Of a DNA stretch of 32,000 nt, positions 6,153 to 31,415 are shown one piece after another. The stretch spans positions 2,550,001 to 2,582,000 of the forward strand of contig FP565575.1 of the NCBI GenBank assembly GCA_000091165.1, written 5' to 3'. The notes beneath the pieces are model-generated. The model was not told where the DNA came from. It saw only the letters and a program-made list of their open reading frames with translations, and did no database searches. Numbering within the stretch: position 1 is the first letter of the stretch; each line of letters opens with the position of its first letter. Source of the stretch: Candidatus Methylomirabilis oxygeniifera. GTDB taxonomy: Bacteria > Methylomirabilota > Methylomirabilia > Methylomirabilales > Methylomirabilaceae. The position numbers were made by a program, and so were the translations under genes.

Positions 6153-7679
6153 ATGGCGCAGATCAAAGCGGAAGAGATCACCGAAATTATCAAGCAGCAA
6201 CTGGCCGGGTACGAGGCGCTTGTTGATGTCGCGGAGGTCGGCACCGTCATCGAGGCGGGCGACGGGATCGCTCGCATCTATGGTCTGGAAAAGGCCATGG
6301 CCGGCGAGCTTCTGGAGTTTCCGCACGACGTCTTCGGCATGGTGCTGAACCTTGAGGAGGATAACGTCGGCGCGGTCCTGCTGGGCGAGGCCGAAGCGAT
6401 CAGGGAGGGTGATCTGGTCAAGCGGACGGGCCGGATCGCCTCTGTGCCGGTGGGCGAGGCGCTGGTGGGGAGGGTGGTGAACGCTCTGGGCCTGCCGATC
6501 GACGGCAAGGGACCGATTGACGCCACAGAGCTTCGACCCATTGAGCGGTTGGCCCCCGGGGTCGTGGACCGCCGACCGGTCAAGGAGGCGCTTCAGACCG
6601 GTATCAAGGCTATCGATGCCATGATCCCGATCGGTCGGGGACAGCGCGAGTTGATCATCGGCGACCGGCAGACCGGTAAGACCGCCGTCGCTATTGACGC
6701 CATCATCAACCAGAAGGGCAAAGACGTCTTCTGTGTCTACGTGGCTGTCGGTCAGAAGCGGTCCACCGTCGCCCAGGTGGTGAAGACGCTGGAAGAGGCC
6801 GGGGCTATGGCCTACACCACGGTTGTTGCGGCCACTGCCTCCGAACTGGCGCCGCTCCAGTATATCGCCCCCTATGCCGGCTGCGCGATAGGCGAGTATT
6901 TCCGGGACTCCGGGCGTCACTCCCTTTGCATCTACGACGACCTGTCCAAGCATGCCCAGGCCTACCGCCAACTCTCACTGCTGCTGCGCCGGCCGCCGGG
7001 CCGCGAGGCCTATCCGGGCGATGTCTTCTACCTGCACTCGCGCCTTCTGGAGCGGGGGGCTAAGCTGAATGACGATCTGGGCGGGGGGTCGCTGACCGCA
7101 CTGCCGATCATCGAAACCCAGCTTGGCGACGTCTCGGCCTACATCCCGACCAACGTGATCTCGATCACCGATGGTCAGATCTATCTGGAAACCGATCTGT
7201 TCTTCGCCGGCATCCGGCCAGCCATCAACGTCGGCCTGTCGGTCTCCCGGGTCGGCGGCTCGGCCCAGATCAAGGCGATGCGGCAGGTGGCCGGTAAACT
7301 TCGACTGGACCTGGCGCAGTATCGGGAGATGGCCGCATTTGCCCAATTCGGGAGCGAATTGGACAAGGCCACCCAGGCCCAGCTCAATCGGGGCGCGCGA
7401 ATGGTCGAGGTGCTGAAGCAGGGACAGTATGTGCCCCTCGAGGTCGAACGGCAGATCCTGATTATCTACGCGGGGACGGCGGGCCACCTGGACGAGCTGC
7501 CGGTTGACGCGGTGTTACAATTCGAAGGGATGTTGCACAAATCCGTCGAGGGGCGGTATCCGGGCATCTTTCAGGAGATCAAGGAAAAGCGCGAGCTTAG
7601 CGATGCCCTCCGCGCCCAGATGGATCAAGCGATTACCGAGTGCAAGGCGGAGTTTCTGGCGGCCCGAAAGGCGGCATAA
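6153..7679 (+). CDS. atpA: F-type ATP synthase subunit alpha
   Basis: 508 aa; Walker A GDRQTGKT; canonical ...[45 protein letters not shown]. Confidence 0.97.
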
Positions 7680-7684
7680 GAACA

Positions 7685-7717
7685 GGGTTTAGGGTATATG
7701 GGGATAGGGTGTAGGGG
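7685..7717 (+). repeat. G-tract heptamer-periodic repeat (G-quadruplex-type motif) in the atpA-atpG spacer
   Basis: GGG-ttta-GGG-tatat-GGGG-ata-GGG-tgta-GGGG: five G3+ tracts with loops of 5 nt or less, filling most of the 44-nt spacer. It shares GGGGATAGGGTG with 3310-3321. Confidence 0.8.
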
Positions 7718-7723
7718 TTAGAA

Positions 7724-8596
7724 TTGGCGACATTACGCGATATTAAGCGGCGCATTACGTCAGTCAAAAGCACGCAGCAGATCACCAAGGCGATGAAGCT
7801 GGTGGCGGCAGCCAAGCTGCGCCGCGCCCAGGAGCGTATCCTGGAGGCCCGCCCCTATGCCTTTAAGATGCAGGAGGTGCTGGCCAGCCTCGCCCTGAGG
7901 GCCGATCCCCAGTATCATCCGCTGCTGTGCCGACGCGAAACCGGCAAAAAGATCATAGTGGTCATCGCTGCCGACAAGGGACTCTGTGGCGGGTTTAACA
8001 GCAATATCATGCGCCGGTCGCTGGAGGTGCTCCGCACAACACCCGGCGAAACGACCGTCACGCTGGTCGTAGTCGGGCGCAAGACGCGCGATTTCTATCG
8101 GCGCCGCCCCTATGCGATCCGGTCGGAACAGATCGGTTTTTTCGATCGGTTGGCGTATGACCATGCGGCCGCGTTGGGCCGCGACCTGGCGAATGCCTAC
8201 GTGGCTGAAGAGGCGGACGAGATCCATCTGATCTATAATGAGTTCAAGTCGGTCGCGACGCAGCGGGTTGTGGTGGAGCGATTACTCCCGATCGAGCCGT
8301 TGCAAGCCCCTGAGGAGCTGGCCGCCATCGACTTTATTTACGAACCATCGCCGCAGGTGATCCTGGAGGGTCTGCTGCCCAAACATGTTGAGGTGCAGGT
8401 GTACAGGGCGCTCATGGAATCGTTGGCTGGTGAGTACGGCGCCCGGATGACCGCTATGGATGCGGCGAGCAAGAACGCCTCAGAGATGATCGACCTGCTG
8501 ACGTTGCAGTTCAACAAGGCGCGGCAGGAACGAATCACCAGGGAGCTGCTCGAGGTTGTCGGTGGGGCCGAGGCGTTGCGGGCGGCTAAGGGATAG
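7724..8596 (+). CDS. atpG: F-type ATP synthase subunit gamma
   Basis: TTG start gives the canonical gamma N-terminus MATLRDIKRRITSVKSTQQITKAMKLVAAAKL; 290 aa. Confidence 0.93.
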   Translation: MATLRDIKRRITSVKSTQQITKAMKLVAAAKLRRAQERILEARPYAFKMQEVLASLALRADPQYHPLLCRRETGKKIIVVIAADKGLCGGFNSNIMRRSLEVLRTTPGETTVTLVVVGRKTRDFYRRRPYAIRSEQIGFFDRLAYDHAAALGRDLANAYVAEEADEIHLIYNEFKSVATQRVVVERLLPIEPLQAPEELAAIDFIYEPSPQVILEGLLPKHVEVQVYRALMESLAGEYGARMTAMDAASKNASEMIDLLTLQFNKARQERITRELLEVVGGAEALRAAKG

Positions 8597-8610: not shown

Positions 8611-10072
<1,462 letters not shown>

Positions 10073-10127
10073 GCCGCCTATAACGCAACAGACGCAAGAG
10101 ACTCAATAGACGTTTTTCGGGAAAGTT

Positions 10128-17481: not shown

Positions 17482-17775
17482 ATGAATCCGGAATCGCTGG
17501 AAGTCTATTGCAGCAACGAGACGTGCAGCGACCCTGGAGCAGTGGATACGGGCATTTCCGTTTCCGCTGCACAGTCGAGAAGATATCGTCGCATGAACTA
17601 CAAGGGCAAGCGTCGAATCGGCGCCGCTCGAGCCTTTCTTTCGAGTCTCGTCATGTTCCAGTTTGACCCCGGCCTCCATTCTCTTCCGCCAGGAAAGTAC
17701 CACATCTTTCAGTGCTCCGCGTGCAACCGCGAGCGCATCTACTGCGAGCAGGGCGACCAGCTTACGGAGGTGTAA
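17482..17775 (+). CDS. Hypothetical Cys-rich small protein (possible zinc ribbon)
   Basis: AGGAGG lies 8 nt upstream of ATG 17482. 97 aa with CSNETC near the N-terminus and CSACNRERIYC near the C-terminus. Third codon positions look GC-rich like the neighbouring genes. No family recognised. Confidence 0.4.
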   Translation: MNPESLEVYCSNETCSDPGAVDTGISVSAAQSRRYRRMNYKGKRRIGAARAFLSSLVMFQFDPGLHSLPPGKYHIFQCSACNRERIYCEQGDQLTEV

Positions 17776-17787
17776 CCGTGGGTTTCC

Positions 17788-18696
17788 TCACTCAAGGTAG
17801 ACGAGGCCCTGGCGGTCGATCTCCAGAAGCTGCACGCGGTTCTCGATCCCGAATTCGTGTCGCCAGCGCTCTCCCATGCGTCGGCCGATCTCCTCGCCAT
17901 CTCCGCTGACCAGCGCGAGGAGTGAGGAGCCTGCGCCGCTTAGGCATGTGGCTAATGCGCCCGCTTGCCGCCCTTCCTCCAGGATTGCCTCCAGCCCGGG
18001 GAGTAGCTCGGCCCGGTACGGTTGGTGAAGACGGTCCTCCATCCCTGGTGCGAGCAGTTCGGGGCGATCGGTGACGAGGCCCGTGAGCAGGAGGGCCAGG
18101 CGGGTCAGGTTGAAGACGGCGTCGGCAAACGGGACCTGCTTAGGGAGCACCTCCCGCGCGCGCTTGGTAGGCAGCTTGAGGTCCGGGATCACGACGACGG
18201 CCTTCAAATACGCGGGAACGGGGACCCTGGCGGCCACGACGCGGCCCGCGACGATGGCGGAAGTCGTGAGACCTCCCATCAAGGCCGGCGTCACGTTGTC
18301 TGGGTGGCCTTCGAACGGCAGCGCTCTGGCGAGAAGCTCATCCGTCGAGAGTTCGACGCGAGCGAGACGACAGGCAGCAGCGATCCCGGCGAGGCAGGCT
18401 GCAGCGCTGCTCCCCAAGCCGCGCCCCAGCGGGATCCGGTTGATCTGACGCACCCGAAGTCCGGACGGCTGATGACCAAAGTCTCGGAGCGTCTCTTGTG
18501 CCGCTCGAACCGACAGGTTACGCCGCCCCGCCTGCTCCAGTTCGACCTTTCCCTCACCCTCGACCTGCAGTTGAAGTCCCTCGCCTTCGTCGGTCAGCTC
18601 TACCTCGTTATAGAGGCTGAGCGCCATCCCCAACGTATCAAATCCTGGTCCAAGGTTGGCCGTTGAGGCCGGCACTCTCACTCTTACCCGTCGCAT
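17788..18696 (-). CDS. thrB: Homoserine kinase
   Basis: 302 aa; VRVPASTANLGPGFDTLG and GHMP-kinase motif PLGRGLGSSAAA. Confidence 0.93.
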   Translation of the reverse strand: MRRVRVRVPASTANLGPGFDTLGMALSLYNEVELTDEGEGLQLQVEGEGKVELEQAGRRNLSVRAAQETLRDFGHQPSGLRVRQINRIPLGRGLGSSAAACLAGIAAACRLARVELSTDELLARALPFEGHPDNVTPALMGGLTTSAIVAGRVVAARVPVPAYLKAVVVIPDLKLPTKRAREVLPKQVPFADAVFNLTRLALLLTGLVTDRPELLAPGMEDRLHQPYRAELLPGLEAILEEGRQAGALATCLSGAGSSLLALVSGDGEEIGRRMGERWRHEFGIENRVQLLEIDRQGLVYLE

Positions 18697-18718
18697 CGAT
18701 CACCCTTTCTCCAAAAAT

Positions 18719-18753
18719 AGCTTTCAGCAGTCAGCGGTCAGCAATCAGCTTCA
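18719..18753 (-). repeat. Heptamer array (5 units), AGCNNTC on + strand = GANNGCT in thrB sense
   Basis: AGCTTTC AGCAGTC AGCGGTC AGCAATC AGCTTCA. In the thrB orientation it ends 22 nt upstream of the thrB ATG. Confidence 0.85.
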
Positions 18754-18759
18754 AACAAA

Positions 18760-18867
18760 CCCCCCTGACCCCCCTTTCCTAAAAAAGGGGGGGATTTTTC
18801 AGGTGTGCCTTTCTCAAAAAGGGGGATATTTTTCACCTCCCCCTTTCGTAAAGGGGGATTGCGGGGG
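18760..18867. repeat. C-run/G-run hairpin cluster (three hairpins of one design)
   Basis: C6-tga, then three hairpins: CCCCCCTTT-cctaaa-AAAGGGGGG (18769-18792), CCTTT-ctcaa-AAAGG (18808-18822, degenerate) and CCCCCTTT-cgt-AAAGGGGG (18839-18857). Each is followed by a T-run on the + strand. No gene ends here on either strand. Confidence 0.85.
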
Positions 18868-18878
18868 TTTTCGTACAC

Positions 18879-18929
18879 CGGGATGCGGCATGGCCTCATG
18901 GGGCGTTCCACCAAGACTTCCGCATCCCG
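18879..18929. repeat. 10-bp perfect inverted repeat CGGGATGCGG / CCGCATCCCG with 31-nt loop
   Basis: Read directly from the sequence. It lies 70-120 nt upstream of the proC -35 box. Function unknown. Confidence 0.5.
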
Positions 18930-18998
18930 CATCGGTGGTCCCCACCATATACCGTAATTTGCCGATCCTCGCAAGGAGTAGTTGGGGGGCGAATCCCC

Positions 18999-19027
18999 TT
19001 GACTCGCTCCGGGTTTGACGCTATAAG
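18999..19027 (+). promoter_or_regulatory. Sigma70-type promoter for proC-yggT-yggU
   Basis: TTGACT (18999-19004), 17-nt spacer, TATAAG (19022-19027), about 32 nt upstream of the proC ATG. Confidence 0.5.
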
Positions 19028-26899: not shown

Positions 26900-26928
26900 T
26901 TGACTCGAATCCGCGTATTTCCTATACT
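26900..26928 (+). promoter_or_regulatory. Strong sigma70-type promoter 220 nt upstream of glpX
   Basis: TTGACT (26900-26905), 17-nt spacer, TATACT (26923-26928). Confidence 0.55.
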
Positions 26929-26956: not shown

Positions 26957-27031
26957 AGTGAACAGAAACGAGCGACTCGCGGCTTCGGACTAGCACCCCC
27001 CATGCGCCGCCGCCACTCCACGGCATACAAA

Positions 27032-27117
27032 CCCCCCCAACCCCCCTTTAGCAAAGGGGGGGACCAGAGCGGGGGATTTCTCTGAAGCTGACGGCTGAGT
27101 GCTGATAGCTGACTGCT
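27032..27117 (+). repeat. Composite leader element: C-run, C6TTT/AAAG6 hairpin, G5-T-rich tract, heptamer array
   Basis: C7 (27032-27038), CCCCCCTTT-agc-AAAGGGGGG (27041-27061), GGGGGATTTCTCT (27071-27083), then GAAGCT GACGGCT GAGTGCT GATAGCT GACTGCT (27084-27117). It is collinear with the thrB-sense element at 18719-18793. Confidence 0.85.
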
Positions 27118-27147
27118 ATTCCCCGAGCAGCAGAGAAGAGAGAGACG

Positions 27148-28110: not shown

Positions 28111-28135
28111 GCCCGCATTGAGCATCGCGTTAATT

Positions 28136-28170
28136 AGCCTTCAGCCTTCAGCCTTCAACCTTCAGCTCTC
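28136..28170 (+). repeat. Heptamer array AGCCTTC x3, AACCTTC, AGCTCTC abutting the hisS start
   Basis: Five exact-period 7-nt units ending 3 nt before ATG 28174. They are in the opposite orientation to the GCTGANN arrays. Confidence 0.9.
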
Positions 28171-28173
28171 CGC

Positions 28174-31211: not shown

Positions 31212-31230
31212 AAAGCAGCGTTGAACTGTT

Positions 31231-31258
31231 AGCCTTCAGCTTTCAGCAATAAGCCGAT
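31231..31258 (+). repeat. Heptamer array AGCCTTC AGCTTTC AGCAATA AGCCGAT after aspS
   Basis: Four 7-nt units starting 20 nt after the aspS stop, decaying into GCT-rich sequence. Confidence 0.7.
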
Positions 31259-31290
31259 CGCTGGCTGCCGGCGGCTCACTGCTGTCGCTG

Positions 31291-31319
31291 TTGACAGGGC
31301 TACGTGACCGGCATATGCT
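31291..31319 (+). promoter_or_regulatory. Sigma70-type promoter for phoH
   Basis: TTGACA (31291-31296), 17-nt spacer, TATGCT (31314-31319). Confidence 0.55.
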
Positions 31320-31344
31320 GAATGTAGATCAAGGAGCGGCTTAT

Positions 31345-31415
31345 AGCTGTCAGCCTTCAGCGGCAAGAGGGTTGTATGTTGCTGATCGCTGAGAGCTGAA
31401 CGCTGAATGATGAGT
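31345..31415 (+). repeat. Inverted pair of heptamer arrays in the phoH leader
   Basis: AGCTGTC AGCCTTC AGCGGCA (31345-31365) faces GCTGATC GCTGAGA GCTGAAC GCTGAAT GATGAGT (31381-31415). UCAGCCUUCAGC can pair with GCUGAUCGCUGA as 5+5 bp around a 2x2 internal loop. Confidence 0.75.

Follow-up and report, generated by a model that had tools for sequence, protein, structure and literature searches.

A hairpin-and-heptamer composite in the thrB leader of Candidatus Methylomirabilis, probably one copy of a dispersed, lineage-specific intergenic repeat

The spacer separating the divergently oriented genes thrB and proC in Candidatus Methylomirabilis (M. oxyfera in the following; phylum NC10) holds an element in which hairpins built of C- and G-runs are joined to a tandem array of degenerate GCTGANN heptamers. 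This element was considered within a 32,000-nt stretch of the genome, termed the window, and all coordinates given here are those of the window. The feature probably forms the core of a single copy of an intergenic repeat that is dispersed, specific to the lineage and similar to the repetitive extragenic palindromes (REP) and bacterial interspersed mosaic elements (BIME), or else the miniature inverted-repeat transposable elements (MITE).

Read in the thrB sense, the thrB copy spans approximately 18713-18915, or some 200 nt. Comparison loci are labeled with L numbers, L252 coming from assembly GCA_002634395.1 and L246 being the left extension of the M. oxyfera sequence. The thrB copy and the gene that it precedes are made up as follows:

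17788-18696 (-): thrB, encoding homoserine kinase, directly downstream of the element (TIGR00191, E = 5.8e-85)
18697-18723 (-): 3' motif of the element and ribosome-binding site, in the thrB sense GCTATTTTTGGAGAAAGGGTGATCG, then the ATG
18724-18753 (-): heptamer array, in the thrB sense TGAA GCTGATT GCTGACC GCTGACT GCTGAAA (Tandem Repeats Finder and pattern scans)
18754-18768 (-): T-rich tract and second G-run, in the thrB sense TCA GGGGGG TTTGTTTG
18769-18799: hairpin 1, C6TTT-cctaaa-AAAG7 (18769-18793), with nine pairs, six of them G-C, then ATTTTT on the + strand; matches the terminator consensus on the + strand
18808-18833: hairpin 2, a degenerate tandem copy (18808-18825), then ATATTTTT on the + strand
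18839-18879: hairpin 3, C5TTT-cgt-AAAG5 (18839-18857), then ATTGCGGGGGTTTT, followed by a G5 run and TTTTCGTACACC
18880-18930 (-): locus-specific upstream hairpin GGGATGCGG ... CCGCATCCC, which holds the shared CCCCATG motif (fold of the leader RNA; compensatory C:G to T:A change relative to L252)

On the + strand, the heptamers AGCTTTC, AGCAGTC, AGCGGTC, AGCAATC and AGCTTCA fill 18719-18753, and C6-TGA lies at 18760-18768. In the thrB sense, the array thus contains the exact GCTGA core four times, every 7 nt, with two variable bases after each core, and closes with the partial unit GCTAT (18717-18721). Because TGA recurs at a 7-nt period, GCTGANN arrays contain stops in all frames; in the thrB array, the four cores supply TGA in each of the three reading frames. 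The three hairpins correspond to a single 34-nt tandem unit present 2.4 times with 71% matches (Tandem Repeats Finder). The TTTTCGTACACC block is, in the thrB sense, the 5' motif GGTGTACGAAAA common to other copies, and the motif GCTAT(T/C)TTC(T/C)GAGGA at the opposite end likewise closes the copies found at glpX, parA, pyrG, a HAD hydrolase gene and a TetR gene. The upstream hairpin was clear only in the thrB copy and in the orthologous pair L141/L223 when sought as a general component. A preliminary description of this spacer had listed the heptamers, C6-TGA, the three hairpins and their T-runs, all of which were found base for base where it had placed them, and the gene identities that it had assumed (thrB, proC, glpX, hisS, aspS and atpG/atpD) were those returned by family searches. 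The limits that it had given, 18719-18867, lie within the element and end too early, as the latter runs on to approximately 18915, where the 5' junction of the presumed insertion is put by the boundary relative to L253-L255, the junctions being placed approximately.

To look beyond the window, the sequence was extended by 9.5 kb to the left and 7.4 kb to the right, giving 49 kb of covered genome. At least four full copies of the element are present in these 49 kb, namely, those at thrB and glpX and two in tandem before parA, the tandem pair having been found by nhmmer with a profile built from six copies:

26994-27125 (+): second full copy, before glpX (nhmmer E = 1e-35; pattern scans)
-617 to -248 (L246 8901-9270): two full elements, head to tail, upstream of parA

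Full copies follow a common order. They open with the 5' motif ..AACNCCCCATG..CACGGYGTACGAAAA (in which a shared CCCCATG precedes CACGGYGTACGAAAA), continue with one to three palindromic units of the form C5-7TTT, short loop, AAAG5-8 (replaced in one copy by inverted heptamer arrays), then with the second G-run and ATTT and an outward-facing array of three to five degenerate GCTGANN heptamers, and end with the 3' motif GCTATTTTCTGAGGA, which runs into the ribosome-binding site. The distance from the 3' motif to the start codon is 7-22 nt in most copies and up to 47 nt in two. At glpX, the parts read CCCCCCATG, ACGGCATACAAA, C7-AA-C6TTT-agc-AAAG7, G5ATTT, TGAA, (GCTGANN)4 and GCTATTCCCCGAG. In the first of the parA copies, an inverted pair of heptamer arrays takes the place of the G/C hairpins, while the second has a degenerate G/C hairpin plus an additional hairpin. 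The 3' motif of the first parA copy abuts the 5' motif of the second and, because the one runs straight into the other, the ends of the element are fixed.

The composite was also sought in metagenomic sequences. A scan for AAAGGGGG-N8-38-(GCTGANN)2GCTGA returned at least 120 loci, and 48 of the 122 matches in these loci also had the partner CCCCCTTT arm, although the pattern did not require it. Copies with 5' and 3' motifs of the M. oxyfera type stand ahead of genes for PyrG (CTP synthase), a HAD hydrolase (two orthologous contigs), a TetR regulator (two contigs), a mop-like protein and a small membrane protein. As such, the idea that a dispersed, ordered composite precedes unrelated genes, originally drawn from the thrB and glpX leaders, now also holds for parA and for the metagenomic pyrG, HAD hydrolase, TetR and mop genes. 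A composite was, moreover, found in the low-G+C contig L127 (39% G+C), assigned to Nitrospirota or Thermodesulfovibrionales by the 84-85% identity of its NuoF to named proteins; since this copy sits in such a contig, the composite extends beyond NC10. In L127 (842-1990, -) and L238, the composite lies inside a 382-aa FdhA/NuoG-like open reading frame (ORF) in which the molybdopterin domain is cut short; a gene could have been interrupted here by insertion, or the arrangement could be an artefact due to selenocysteine or to a pseudogene.

The possibility that these likenesses reflect chance was addressed by comparison with shuffled sequences. The three-unit array pattern GCTGANNGCTGANNGCTGA, with up to two mismatches, gave 17 matches in the window as opposed to 0.07 expected, while the hairpin pattern CCCCCTTT-N2-8-AAAGGGGG gave three as opposed to 0.00 expected, two of them in the thrB-proC spacer and one before glpX. 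When exact 5-mers repeated at least three times were sought in the 49 kb, arrays appeared at period 7 only, at eight loci, seven of which were of the GCTGA type; at periods 5, 6 and 8-11, no such arrays were found in the 49 kb, nor were any found in the shuffles. Local alignment of the thrB and glpX leaders proved collinear, with a score of 58 as compared to 17.5 +/- 2.6 (maximum 33) in 500 dinucleotide shuffles (z = 15.7), and took in the hairpin, the second G-run, the T-rich tract, TGAAGCTGA, four units and GCTATT. The preliminary description had named this similarity as the point on which its proposal might fail against shuffled controls, and the proposal withstood the comparison.

To follow the history of the element, ThrB homologues sharing 91, 87, 85 and 80% identity with the M. 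oxyfera protein were traced to contigs L252, L253, L254 and L255, respectively. All five orthologous thrB loci share the sequence CCTTGCG(A/G)GGATCGGCAAATTACGGTATATGG, taken here to be the thrB promoter, which includes the following site, missed by a consensus scan because the second hexamer ends in G:

18946-18974 (-): thrB promoter-like site TTGCGA-17-TATATG, read from the alignment and kept in the five loci

In L253, L254 and L255, the promoter is followed by an ordinary leader of approximately 45 nt to the ATG, with a GGAG ribosome-binding site, and neither hairpin nor array was found in these three thrB leaders; the divergent proC-thrB gene order of the window is also seen in L255. Relative to these, the thrB leader of the window contains some 200 nt of extra DNA. 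L252 shares the first part of this extra DNA, with the compensatory change in the upstream hairpin listed above. Where the window has hairpins and array, L252 (9700-10000) has four TGGTCTATN 9-mers and then inverted AGACC units, and it becomes alignable with the window again from ATTTTCT..GGAG..GTGATCGATG onward. Most simply, this would mean that the thrB-leader site accepts different repeat cargo in the window and in L252, and that a recent insertion or expansion would have taken place in the M. oxyfera lineage between the conserved thrB promoter and the start codon. Because three relatives keep the promoter but are without the element, the latter is, on these comparisons, no part of ancestral thrB control and, in this reading, neither an ancestral nor a gene-specific attenuator. 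No difference was seen across 21 kb, array included, between the public M. oxyfera assemblies L249 and L250. The independent short-read assemblies L002-L005 and L251 break within hairpin 1, at a distance of 78 nt from the downstream thrB ATG, or begin within the spacer; palindromes or repeats fragment assemblies at the thrB leader.

Beyond the full copies, the window contains additional heptamer arrays:

8611-8629 (+): three-unit array in the atpG-atpD spacer, sense-oriented, with 22 nt to the atpD ATG
28134-28173 (-): six-unit, near-homogeneous (GCTGAAG)n array in the spacer between the glpX stop codon and the hisS ATG, facing the glpX stop codon and antisense to hisS
31229-31413: cluster of three arrays in the aspS-phoH spacer, at 31229-31254 (-), 31343-31361 (-) and 31381-31413 (+)

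The last two arrays of the aspS-phoH cluster form an inverted pair downstream of a promoter-like TTGACA-17-TATGCT sequence. Together, four of the window arrays point toward a start codon (atpD, thrB, glpX and phoH), two toward a stop codon (glpX and aspS) and one toward neither. In L252, the antisense array between glpX and hisS is kept, and the aspS-phoH arrays are down to two units, with the adjoining promoter-like sequence retained. No GCTGANN array was found in the 21 kb each of L254 and L255. The orthologous pair L141/L223 differs by one entire unit, and the pair L226/L241 by one NN base. To judge from these loci, arrays are gained, lost and resized over short evolutionary distances. In orthologous arrays, a small sample, four to five changes were counted at NN and none in the core, although the core makes up 20 of every 28 array positions and would take its share of evenly spread substitutions.

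The element is non-coding, falls within 50-500 nt, occurs in multiple copies and is present or absent at orthologous loci, as is true of MITEs, and its three hairpin units, arranged at a 34-nt period, are tandem extragenic palindromes, comparable to the imperfect palindromes of 20-40 nt in REP and BIME sequences. The repeat would behave as self-propagating DNA of the REP/BIME or MITE type, with any effects on expression probably being by-products or only mildly selected. A number of points weigh against this interpretation. The 5' end AACNCCCCATG.. shows no complementarity to the 3' end ..GCTATTTTCTGAGGA, such that terminal inverted repeats were not found, nor was a target-site duplication seen at the thrB junctions when the empty sites of L253-L255 were compared with the filled site, the junctions being approximate; because both are missing, the classical definition of a MITE fails. 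No transposase was linked to the repeat, genes for REP-associated transposases (RAYT) not having been part of the search. Copies were counted in 49 kb, so that a genome-wide copy number is an extrapolation. The glpX copy is kept in L252 with one NN change, no core change and one stem mismatch, below a conserved promoter. That the GCTGA core is spared as NN drifts, and that this core recurs in many phyla, is suggestive of selection on the core, which a purely selfish repeat does not explain. Finally, the terminator role, suggested by hairpins that resemble bidirectional terminators, and the frame-closing role are predictions from the sequence.

As to those roles, the + strand of the thrB-proC spacer contains three matches to the intrinsic-terminator consensus, as opposed to 0.6 expected, with matches at hairpin 1 (18769-18793) followed by ATTTTT, and at an alternative stem (18843-18867), which takes in the 3' arm of hairpin 3 together with the G-run behind it and is itself followed by TTTTCG. 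The remainder of the window, with ten matches and 11.3 expected, shows no excess. The predicted + strand structures thus combine a G+C-rich stem, a short loop and a U-tract. In the thrB direction, what comes after the hairpins is A-rich or interrupted, making for poor U-tracts, and these hairpins would therefore mostly be read through. thrB and a 97-aa ORF on the + strand converge with 12 nt between them (17775-17788), and no terminator-like site beyond chance was found between the genes converging on thrB and the thrB-proC spacer. Since there is no earlier terminator-like site beyond the convergent genes, the first terminator encountered by transcripts that cross thrB in antisense would be in this spacer, where the + strand hairpins with their U-runs may act as intrinsic terminators before proC is reached. 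The preliminary description had held that the hairpins were not terminators of annotated genes as no gene ends there, an argument that is weak given the + strand consensus matches and the converging transcripts without an earlier site. On the thrB strand, the all-frame TGA just before the ribosome-binding site would end upstream translation before thrB.

Whether the hairpins are conserved as RNA structures was addressed with 30 aligned composites. In the GGGGG(A)TTT block, conservation reaches at least 70% in each column, and at least 90% at the G-run positions, even with copies devoid of a partner C-run included, and the segments between the C-runs and G-runs, i.e., the internal loop, are complementary in only a few copies. 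That the second G-run and ATTT are kept even where a pairing partner is missing points to conservation at the level of sequence, not of structure. In RNAalifold, eight of the nine inner-stem pairs were invariant and one switched from C:G to U:A; because the inner stem is almost invariant, covariation says nothing for or against an RNA structure. The entire thrB leader RNA folds at -101 kcal/mol (z = -3.2). Rfam searches of the window at the gathering threshold, together with permissive scans of both leaders, returned sub-threshold noise only, and searches of 18 related loci returned only a tRNA and an unrelated Acido-Lenti-1 RNA. The composite, described at the outset as an unrecognized architecture, thus matches no Rfam family. 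As compared to curated cis-regulatory RNAs, it is without an Rfam match, is absent from orthologous thrB leaders and shows covariation in one of nine pairs.

To determine how widely the array alone is distributed, a 596-Gb genome collection was scanned for exact (GCTGANN)3GCTGA, a sample that requires at least four units. At least 120 loci were found, as compared to approximately one expected by chance according to our own calculation. Among the matches listed, Acidobacteriota were the most common, with Chloroflexota, Planctomycetota, Verrucomicrobiota, Cyanobacteriota, Nitrospirota, Desulfobacterota, Omnitrophota, Poribacteria, Gemmatimonadota, Bacteroidota and others also represented. The sampled arrays mostly comprise four to five units, have no conserved 5' flank and share the consensus 3' end GCTGA-(C/T)A-GCT-(A/T); 146 of 186 vary at NN (147 if one array at the edge of a locus is also counted), and some are plain microsatellites, such as (GCTGAGT)n. 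Inverted pairs of the form (NNTCAGC)n-spacer-(GCTGANN)n are common in these loci. No C5TTT..AAAG5 hairpin was found near the arrays of other phyla in 860 kb (120 loci) and, because of this absence, the composite is considered to be lineage-restricted and the array not. In L006-L125, the terminal units are often GCTTA, GCTCA or GCTAA, the three position-4 variants of GCTGA, with the reverse complements TAAGC, TGAGC and TTAGC each providing a stop codon for the strand on which the convergent gene lies. In these same loci, other TGA-bearing heptamer arrays (ACTGANN, CCTGANN and GGACTGA) adjoin GCTGA arrays.

The polarity of 102 heterogeneous arrays from other phyla was next considered relative to genes called approximately, by a greedy procedure that took the longest ORFs first and required a minimum of 150 aa. 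The 3' end of the array, in the GCTGA sense, lies at a median of 17.5 nt from the nearest gene boundary and the 5' end at a median of 132 nt, with the 3' end being the nearer in 70 arrays and the 5' end in 32 (p = 2e-4). The boundary neighboring the 3' end is a start codon in 50 arrays and, in the other 52, a convergent stop codon. Where a spacer separates genes of the same direction, 36 arrays were co-oriented and 33 anti-oriented and, among 47 evaluable metagenomic composites of hairpin plus array, 16 faced a start, 16 a convergent stop and 15 neither. Consistent placement before start codons was seen only in the M. oxyfera subfamily with the GCTATTTTCTGAGGA end. The preliminary view of an orientation-specific leader is thus apt for that subfamily and not for arrays in general, given the near-equal counts just cited, the antisense array at hisS and the array at 31229-31254, which follows the aspS stop codon. 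Polarity toward gene boundaries fits the terminator and frame-closing roles, which do not explain the conservation of GC and A along with TGA.

Such observations allow for a broader proposal, which we consider rather unlikely, in which (GCTGANN)n and sister arrays such as TAACTGA and TAGGGNN would form a widespread, as yet unnamed class of gene-boundary elements. These would be polar, with a selected 5-nt core in a 7-nt register and the 3' end at the nearest start or stop codon, and would either be recognized by a conserved, oligomeric factor that binds DNA or RNA or serve as an all-frame stop that insulates genes on either strand, with the M. oxyfera composite being the packaging of one lineage, together with a bidirectional terminator.

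Several rival explanations were also considered. Were the element the cis-regulatory leader of a regulon, an oligomeric RNA- or DNA-binding protein would read GCTGA cores spaced at 7 nt and thereby set the level of translation or transcription of the gene that follows, and the hairpin would serve as an attenuator. Such a role is consistent with a fixed 5-nt core and a variable 2-nt spacer, both within arrays and between orthologues, with the narrow array size (mostly four to five units in a sample of at least four), the sharp 5' boundary and the defined GCT(A/T) 3' end, with the fixed short distance from the array to the ribosome-binding site and ATG at nine different genes in the M. oxyfera subfamily, and with retention of the glpX copy in L252; the same idea was put forward for TAACTGA repeats (MacGregor 2015, PMC4679880). 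This role is nonetheless unlikely, as three relatives lack the element in the orthologous thrB leader, arrays face stops as often as starts with no net bias relative to the direction of transcription, the downstream genes have no common function, the binding protein is so far only hypothetical and the array lies downstream of the hairpin, such that binding could not pre-empt folding of the terminator. A portable promoter is considerably less probable still. In that case, the array would offer a -35-like cTGACn every 7 bp, the terminal GCTATTTT would offer a -10-like TATTTT 16 nt from the third unit upstream, and the hairpin would terminate upstream transcription. The geometry, comprising GCTGACN units, a 16-nt spacer and TATTTT, is in the sequence, TGCTATTTT resembles an extended -10 element in several copies, and in many metagenomic copies the hairpin-array-ATG arrangement leaves no room for another promoter. 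Yet, a consensus scan of the thrB element was negative, a start 7 nt past TATTTT would put GAGGA at or before the 5' end of the transcript, the terminal NAGCT(T/A) of other phyla yields 12- or 19-nt spacers with the ATG often within 2-10 nt, and conserved promoter-like sites already lie upstream of the thrB and glpX copies. A promoter inside the array was rejected on the grounds of the latter sites and of the missing consensus match. In addition to the thrB site given above, two promoter-like sites were noted, sharing an extended CTTGACTCG motif around the first hexamer:

18999-19027 (+): proC promoter-like site TTGACT-17-TATAAG, outside the element, seen on inspection and not flagged by the consensus scan
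26900-26928 (+): promoter-like site TTGACT-17-TATACT, upstream of the glpX copy and kept in L252 (10/12 matches, 0.0 expected)

Two further explanations are both exceedingly improbable. One would have the spacer encode a small protein or leader peptide, in that a 64-aa ORF (18738-18932, -) starts near CCCCATG, crosses the three hairpins and stops at a TGA of the array, and its translation would govern how the hairpin folds, as happens in classical attenuation. The ORF is called as a gene in the ENA assembly, and ATG-initiated ORFs run from CCCCATG into or through the hairpin in six of nine copies inspected. Still, no Pfam hit is on record, the frame varies among copies and three of these have no ATG, the ATG is without a preceding ribosome-binding site, and the peptide is of low complexity, a by-product of the C- and G-runs. 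L252 is frameshifted at this position, with a 22-aa ORF instead, such that a conserved small protein was rejected and the gene call is probably spurious. Accordingly, the earlier statement that no annotated gene explains the spacer needs qualifying in that one public assembly does annotate this ORF, yet stands in that the ORF is not conserved. The other, in which neutral simple-sequence slippage and chance palindromes would have produced unrelated copies, is contradicted by the statistics, namely, the excesses of 17 over 0.07 and 3 over 0.00 and the z of 15.7 in the shuffle controls, as well as the at least 120 exact-array loci where approximately one was expected in 596 Gb. It is true that heptanucleotide simple-sequence repeats (SSRs) are the commonest class of long SSR in many bacteria, as far as Mrazek (2007) is cited in PMC4679880, and that homogeneous (GCTGAGT)n and (GCTGAAG)n microsatellites also occur, the latter at 28134-28173. 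Nonetheless, units exact at the core and heterogeneous at NN are not what slippage yields, and copies have 5' and 3' motifs in common. A Rho-loading site on the + strand was also considered and rejected, since the array, while richer in C than in G (17 C and 9 G in 50 nt), has a C spacing of 7 nt and not the approximately 12 nt usually quoted for such sites.

Likening the element instead to a dispersed repeat, as favored here, invites comparison with known systems, although neither GCTGANN arrays nor Methylomirabilis repeats were found to be described in the literature searched. Dispersed intergenic arrays of tandem heptanucleotides, as found here, are the hallmark of the short tandemly repeated repetitive (STRR) sequences of heterocystous cyanobacteria, which are present at high copy number. 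The STRR units CCCCAGT, TTGGTCA and CAACAGT are homogeneous and differ from GCTGANN, in which NN varies, and M. oxyfera, to which exact protein matches assign the window, belongs to NC10 and not to the cyanobacteria. The preliminary comparison to STRR elements was thus reasonable as an association with a class of heptamers and fails for unit, homogeneity and host. To our knowledge, a hairpin composite has not been described for STRR sequences. Like the REP and BIME sequences of Proteobacteria, the element presents short extragenic palindromes in tandem clusters, variably present between relatives. REP and BIME sequences number in the hundreds per genome and are associated with RAYT, are transcribed with neighboring genes, can terminate transcription or stabilize mRNA and usually lie downstream of genes. 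By contrast, the thrB copy has no GTAG-type motif and lies in a 5' leader between divergent genes, while REPs have no heptamer array. The Correia/NEMIS MITEs of Neisseria are similar in being some 150-200 nt long, non-coding, located between promoter and start, able to form mRNA hairpins and present or absent at orthologous sites, and differ by the terminal inverted repeats and target-site duplications not seen at the thrB junctions. Proteins that read a 7-nt register have precedents in the omega repressor of pSM19035, a ribbon-helix-helix protein that binds 7-bp DNA heptads, and in HutP, which binds UAG-N4 RNA repeats. These systems likewise involve a 5-nt (or 3-nt) core at an exact 7-nt period, in direct and inverted arrangements, yet rely on other sequences and are single-operon or plasmid systems, as opposed to hundreds of chromosomal sites.

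The nearest published parallel is offered by the TAACTGA repeats of marine Beggiatoaceae, some cyanobacteria and Bacteroidetes, which occur in two to six copies, mostly just upstream of starts, and provide stops in all frames (MacGregor 2015, PMC4679880). Strains differ in their TAACTGA repeats by steps of 7 nt, and binding by S1, Csp or CsrA-like proteins has been proposed (PMC4679880). Both are tandem heptamers sharing a CTGA core (three to six units per window array, all of them intergenic), almost all are intergenic with all-frame stops in the forward direction, a minority of the TAACTGA repeats and two of the seven window arrays point at stops, and in both the downstream genes show no functional pattern and no function is assigned. 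TAACTGA is, however, one exact heptamer, whereas GCTGANN combines a fixed GCTGA with two variable positions and a defined terminal GCT(A/T); in M. oxyfera, the arrays are joined to hairpins of G/C-runs, with conserved motifs at the 5' and 3' ends. GCTGANN also has a different and much wider taxonomic range, and the sampled arrays face stops as often as starts. In Haemophilus influenzae, a heptanucleotide repeat located upstream of hmw1A, between promoter and start, alters expression (PMC8262952, PMC12721329). That array is homogeneous, long and hypermutable (phase variation), while the thrB array is short and heterogeneous; NN heterogeneity, the identity of L249 and L250 and unit changes seen only between species likewise set the latter apart from phase-variable SSRs.

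In terms of significance, three aspects appear to be new. The unit is degenerate, with a 5-nt core kept as two positions drift, which argues for selection on the core; the arrays are linked to terminator-like G/C-run hairpins in NC10 and Nitrospirota; and the sample of public genomes shows polar arrays abutting gene boundaries, be it at starts or stops, in many little-studied phyla. No function has found acceptance for dispersed heptamer arrays, although these have been known since approximately 1990 in cyanobacteria and since 2015 in Beggiatoaceae. Were a binding factor or an insulating role to prove true, the arrays would represent a common gene-boundary architecture missing from model organisms. 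If they are only a selfish repeat, they would still be a useful marker of recent genome change in Methylomirabilis. For annotation, the element accounts for spurious small ORF calls and for assembly breaks at such sites.

Examination of the surroundings, including the dnaN-gyrB / rpmH-yidC-gidB-parAB cluster that the window adjoins, revealed further repeats. A second heptamer family lies in the atpA-atpG spacer at 7690-7721 (+), reading TAGggta TATgggga TAGggtg TAGgggt TAGaat, with TAG at 7690, 7704, 7711 and 7718, such that each of the three frames is closed just ahead of the atpG TTG at 7724. Between gyrB and gyrA, reverse-complement relatives of this family, ACCCTAC, ACCCTAT and ACCCTGT, are found at approximately -8043 (L246). 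In L087, at 6385-6415, (AGCTTCT)3, which is (GCTAGAA)n on the other strand and hence of the TAG type, adjoins an Acido-Lenti-1 RNA (6435-6480, 46.5 bits). Finally, the atpD-atpC spacer of the same operon as the second heptamer family contains, at 10083-10112, a repeat of a different type, namely, the 9-nt tandem repeat ACGCAACAG, present 3.3 times.

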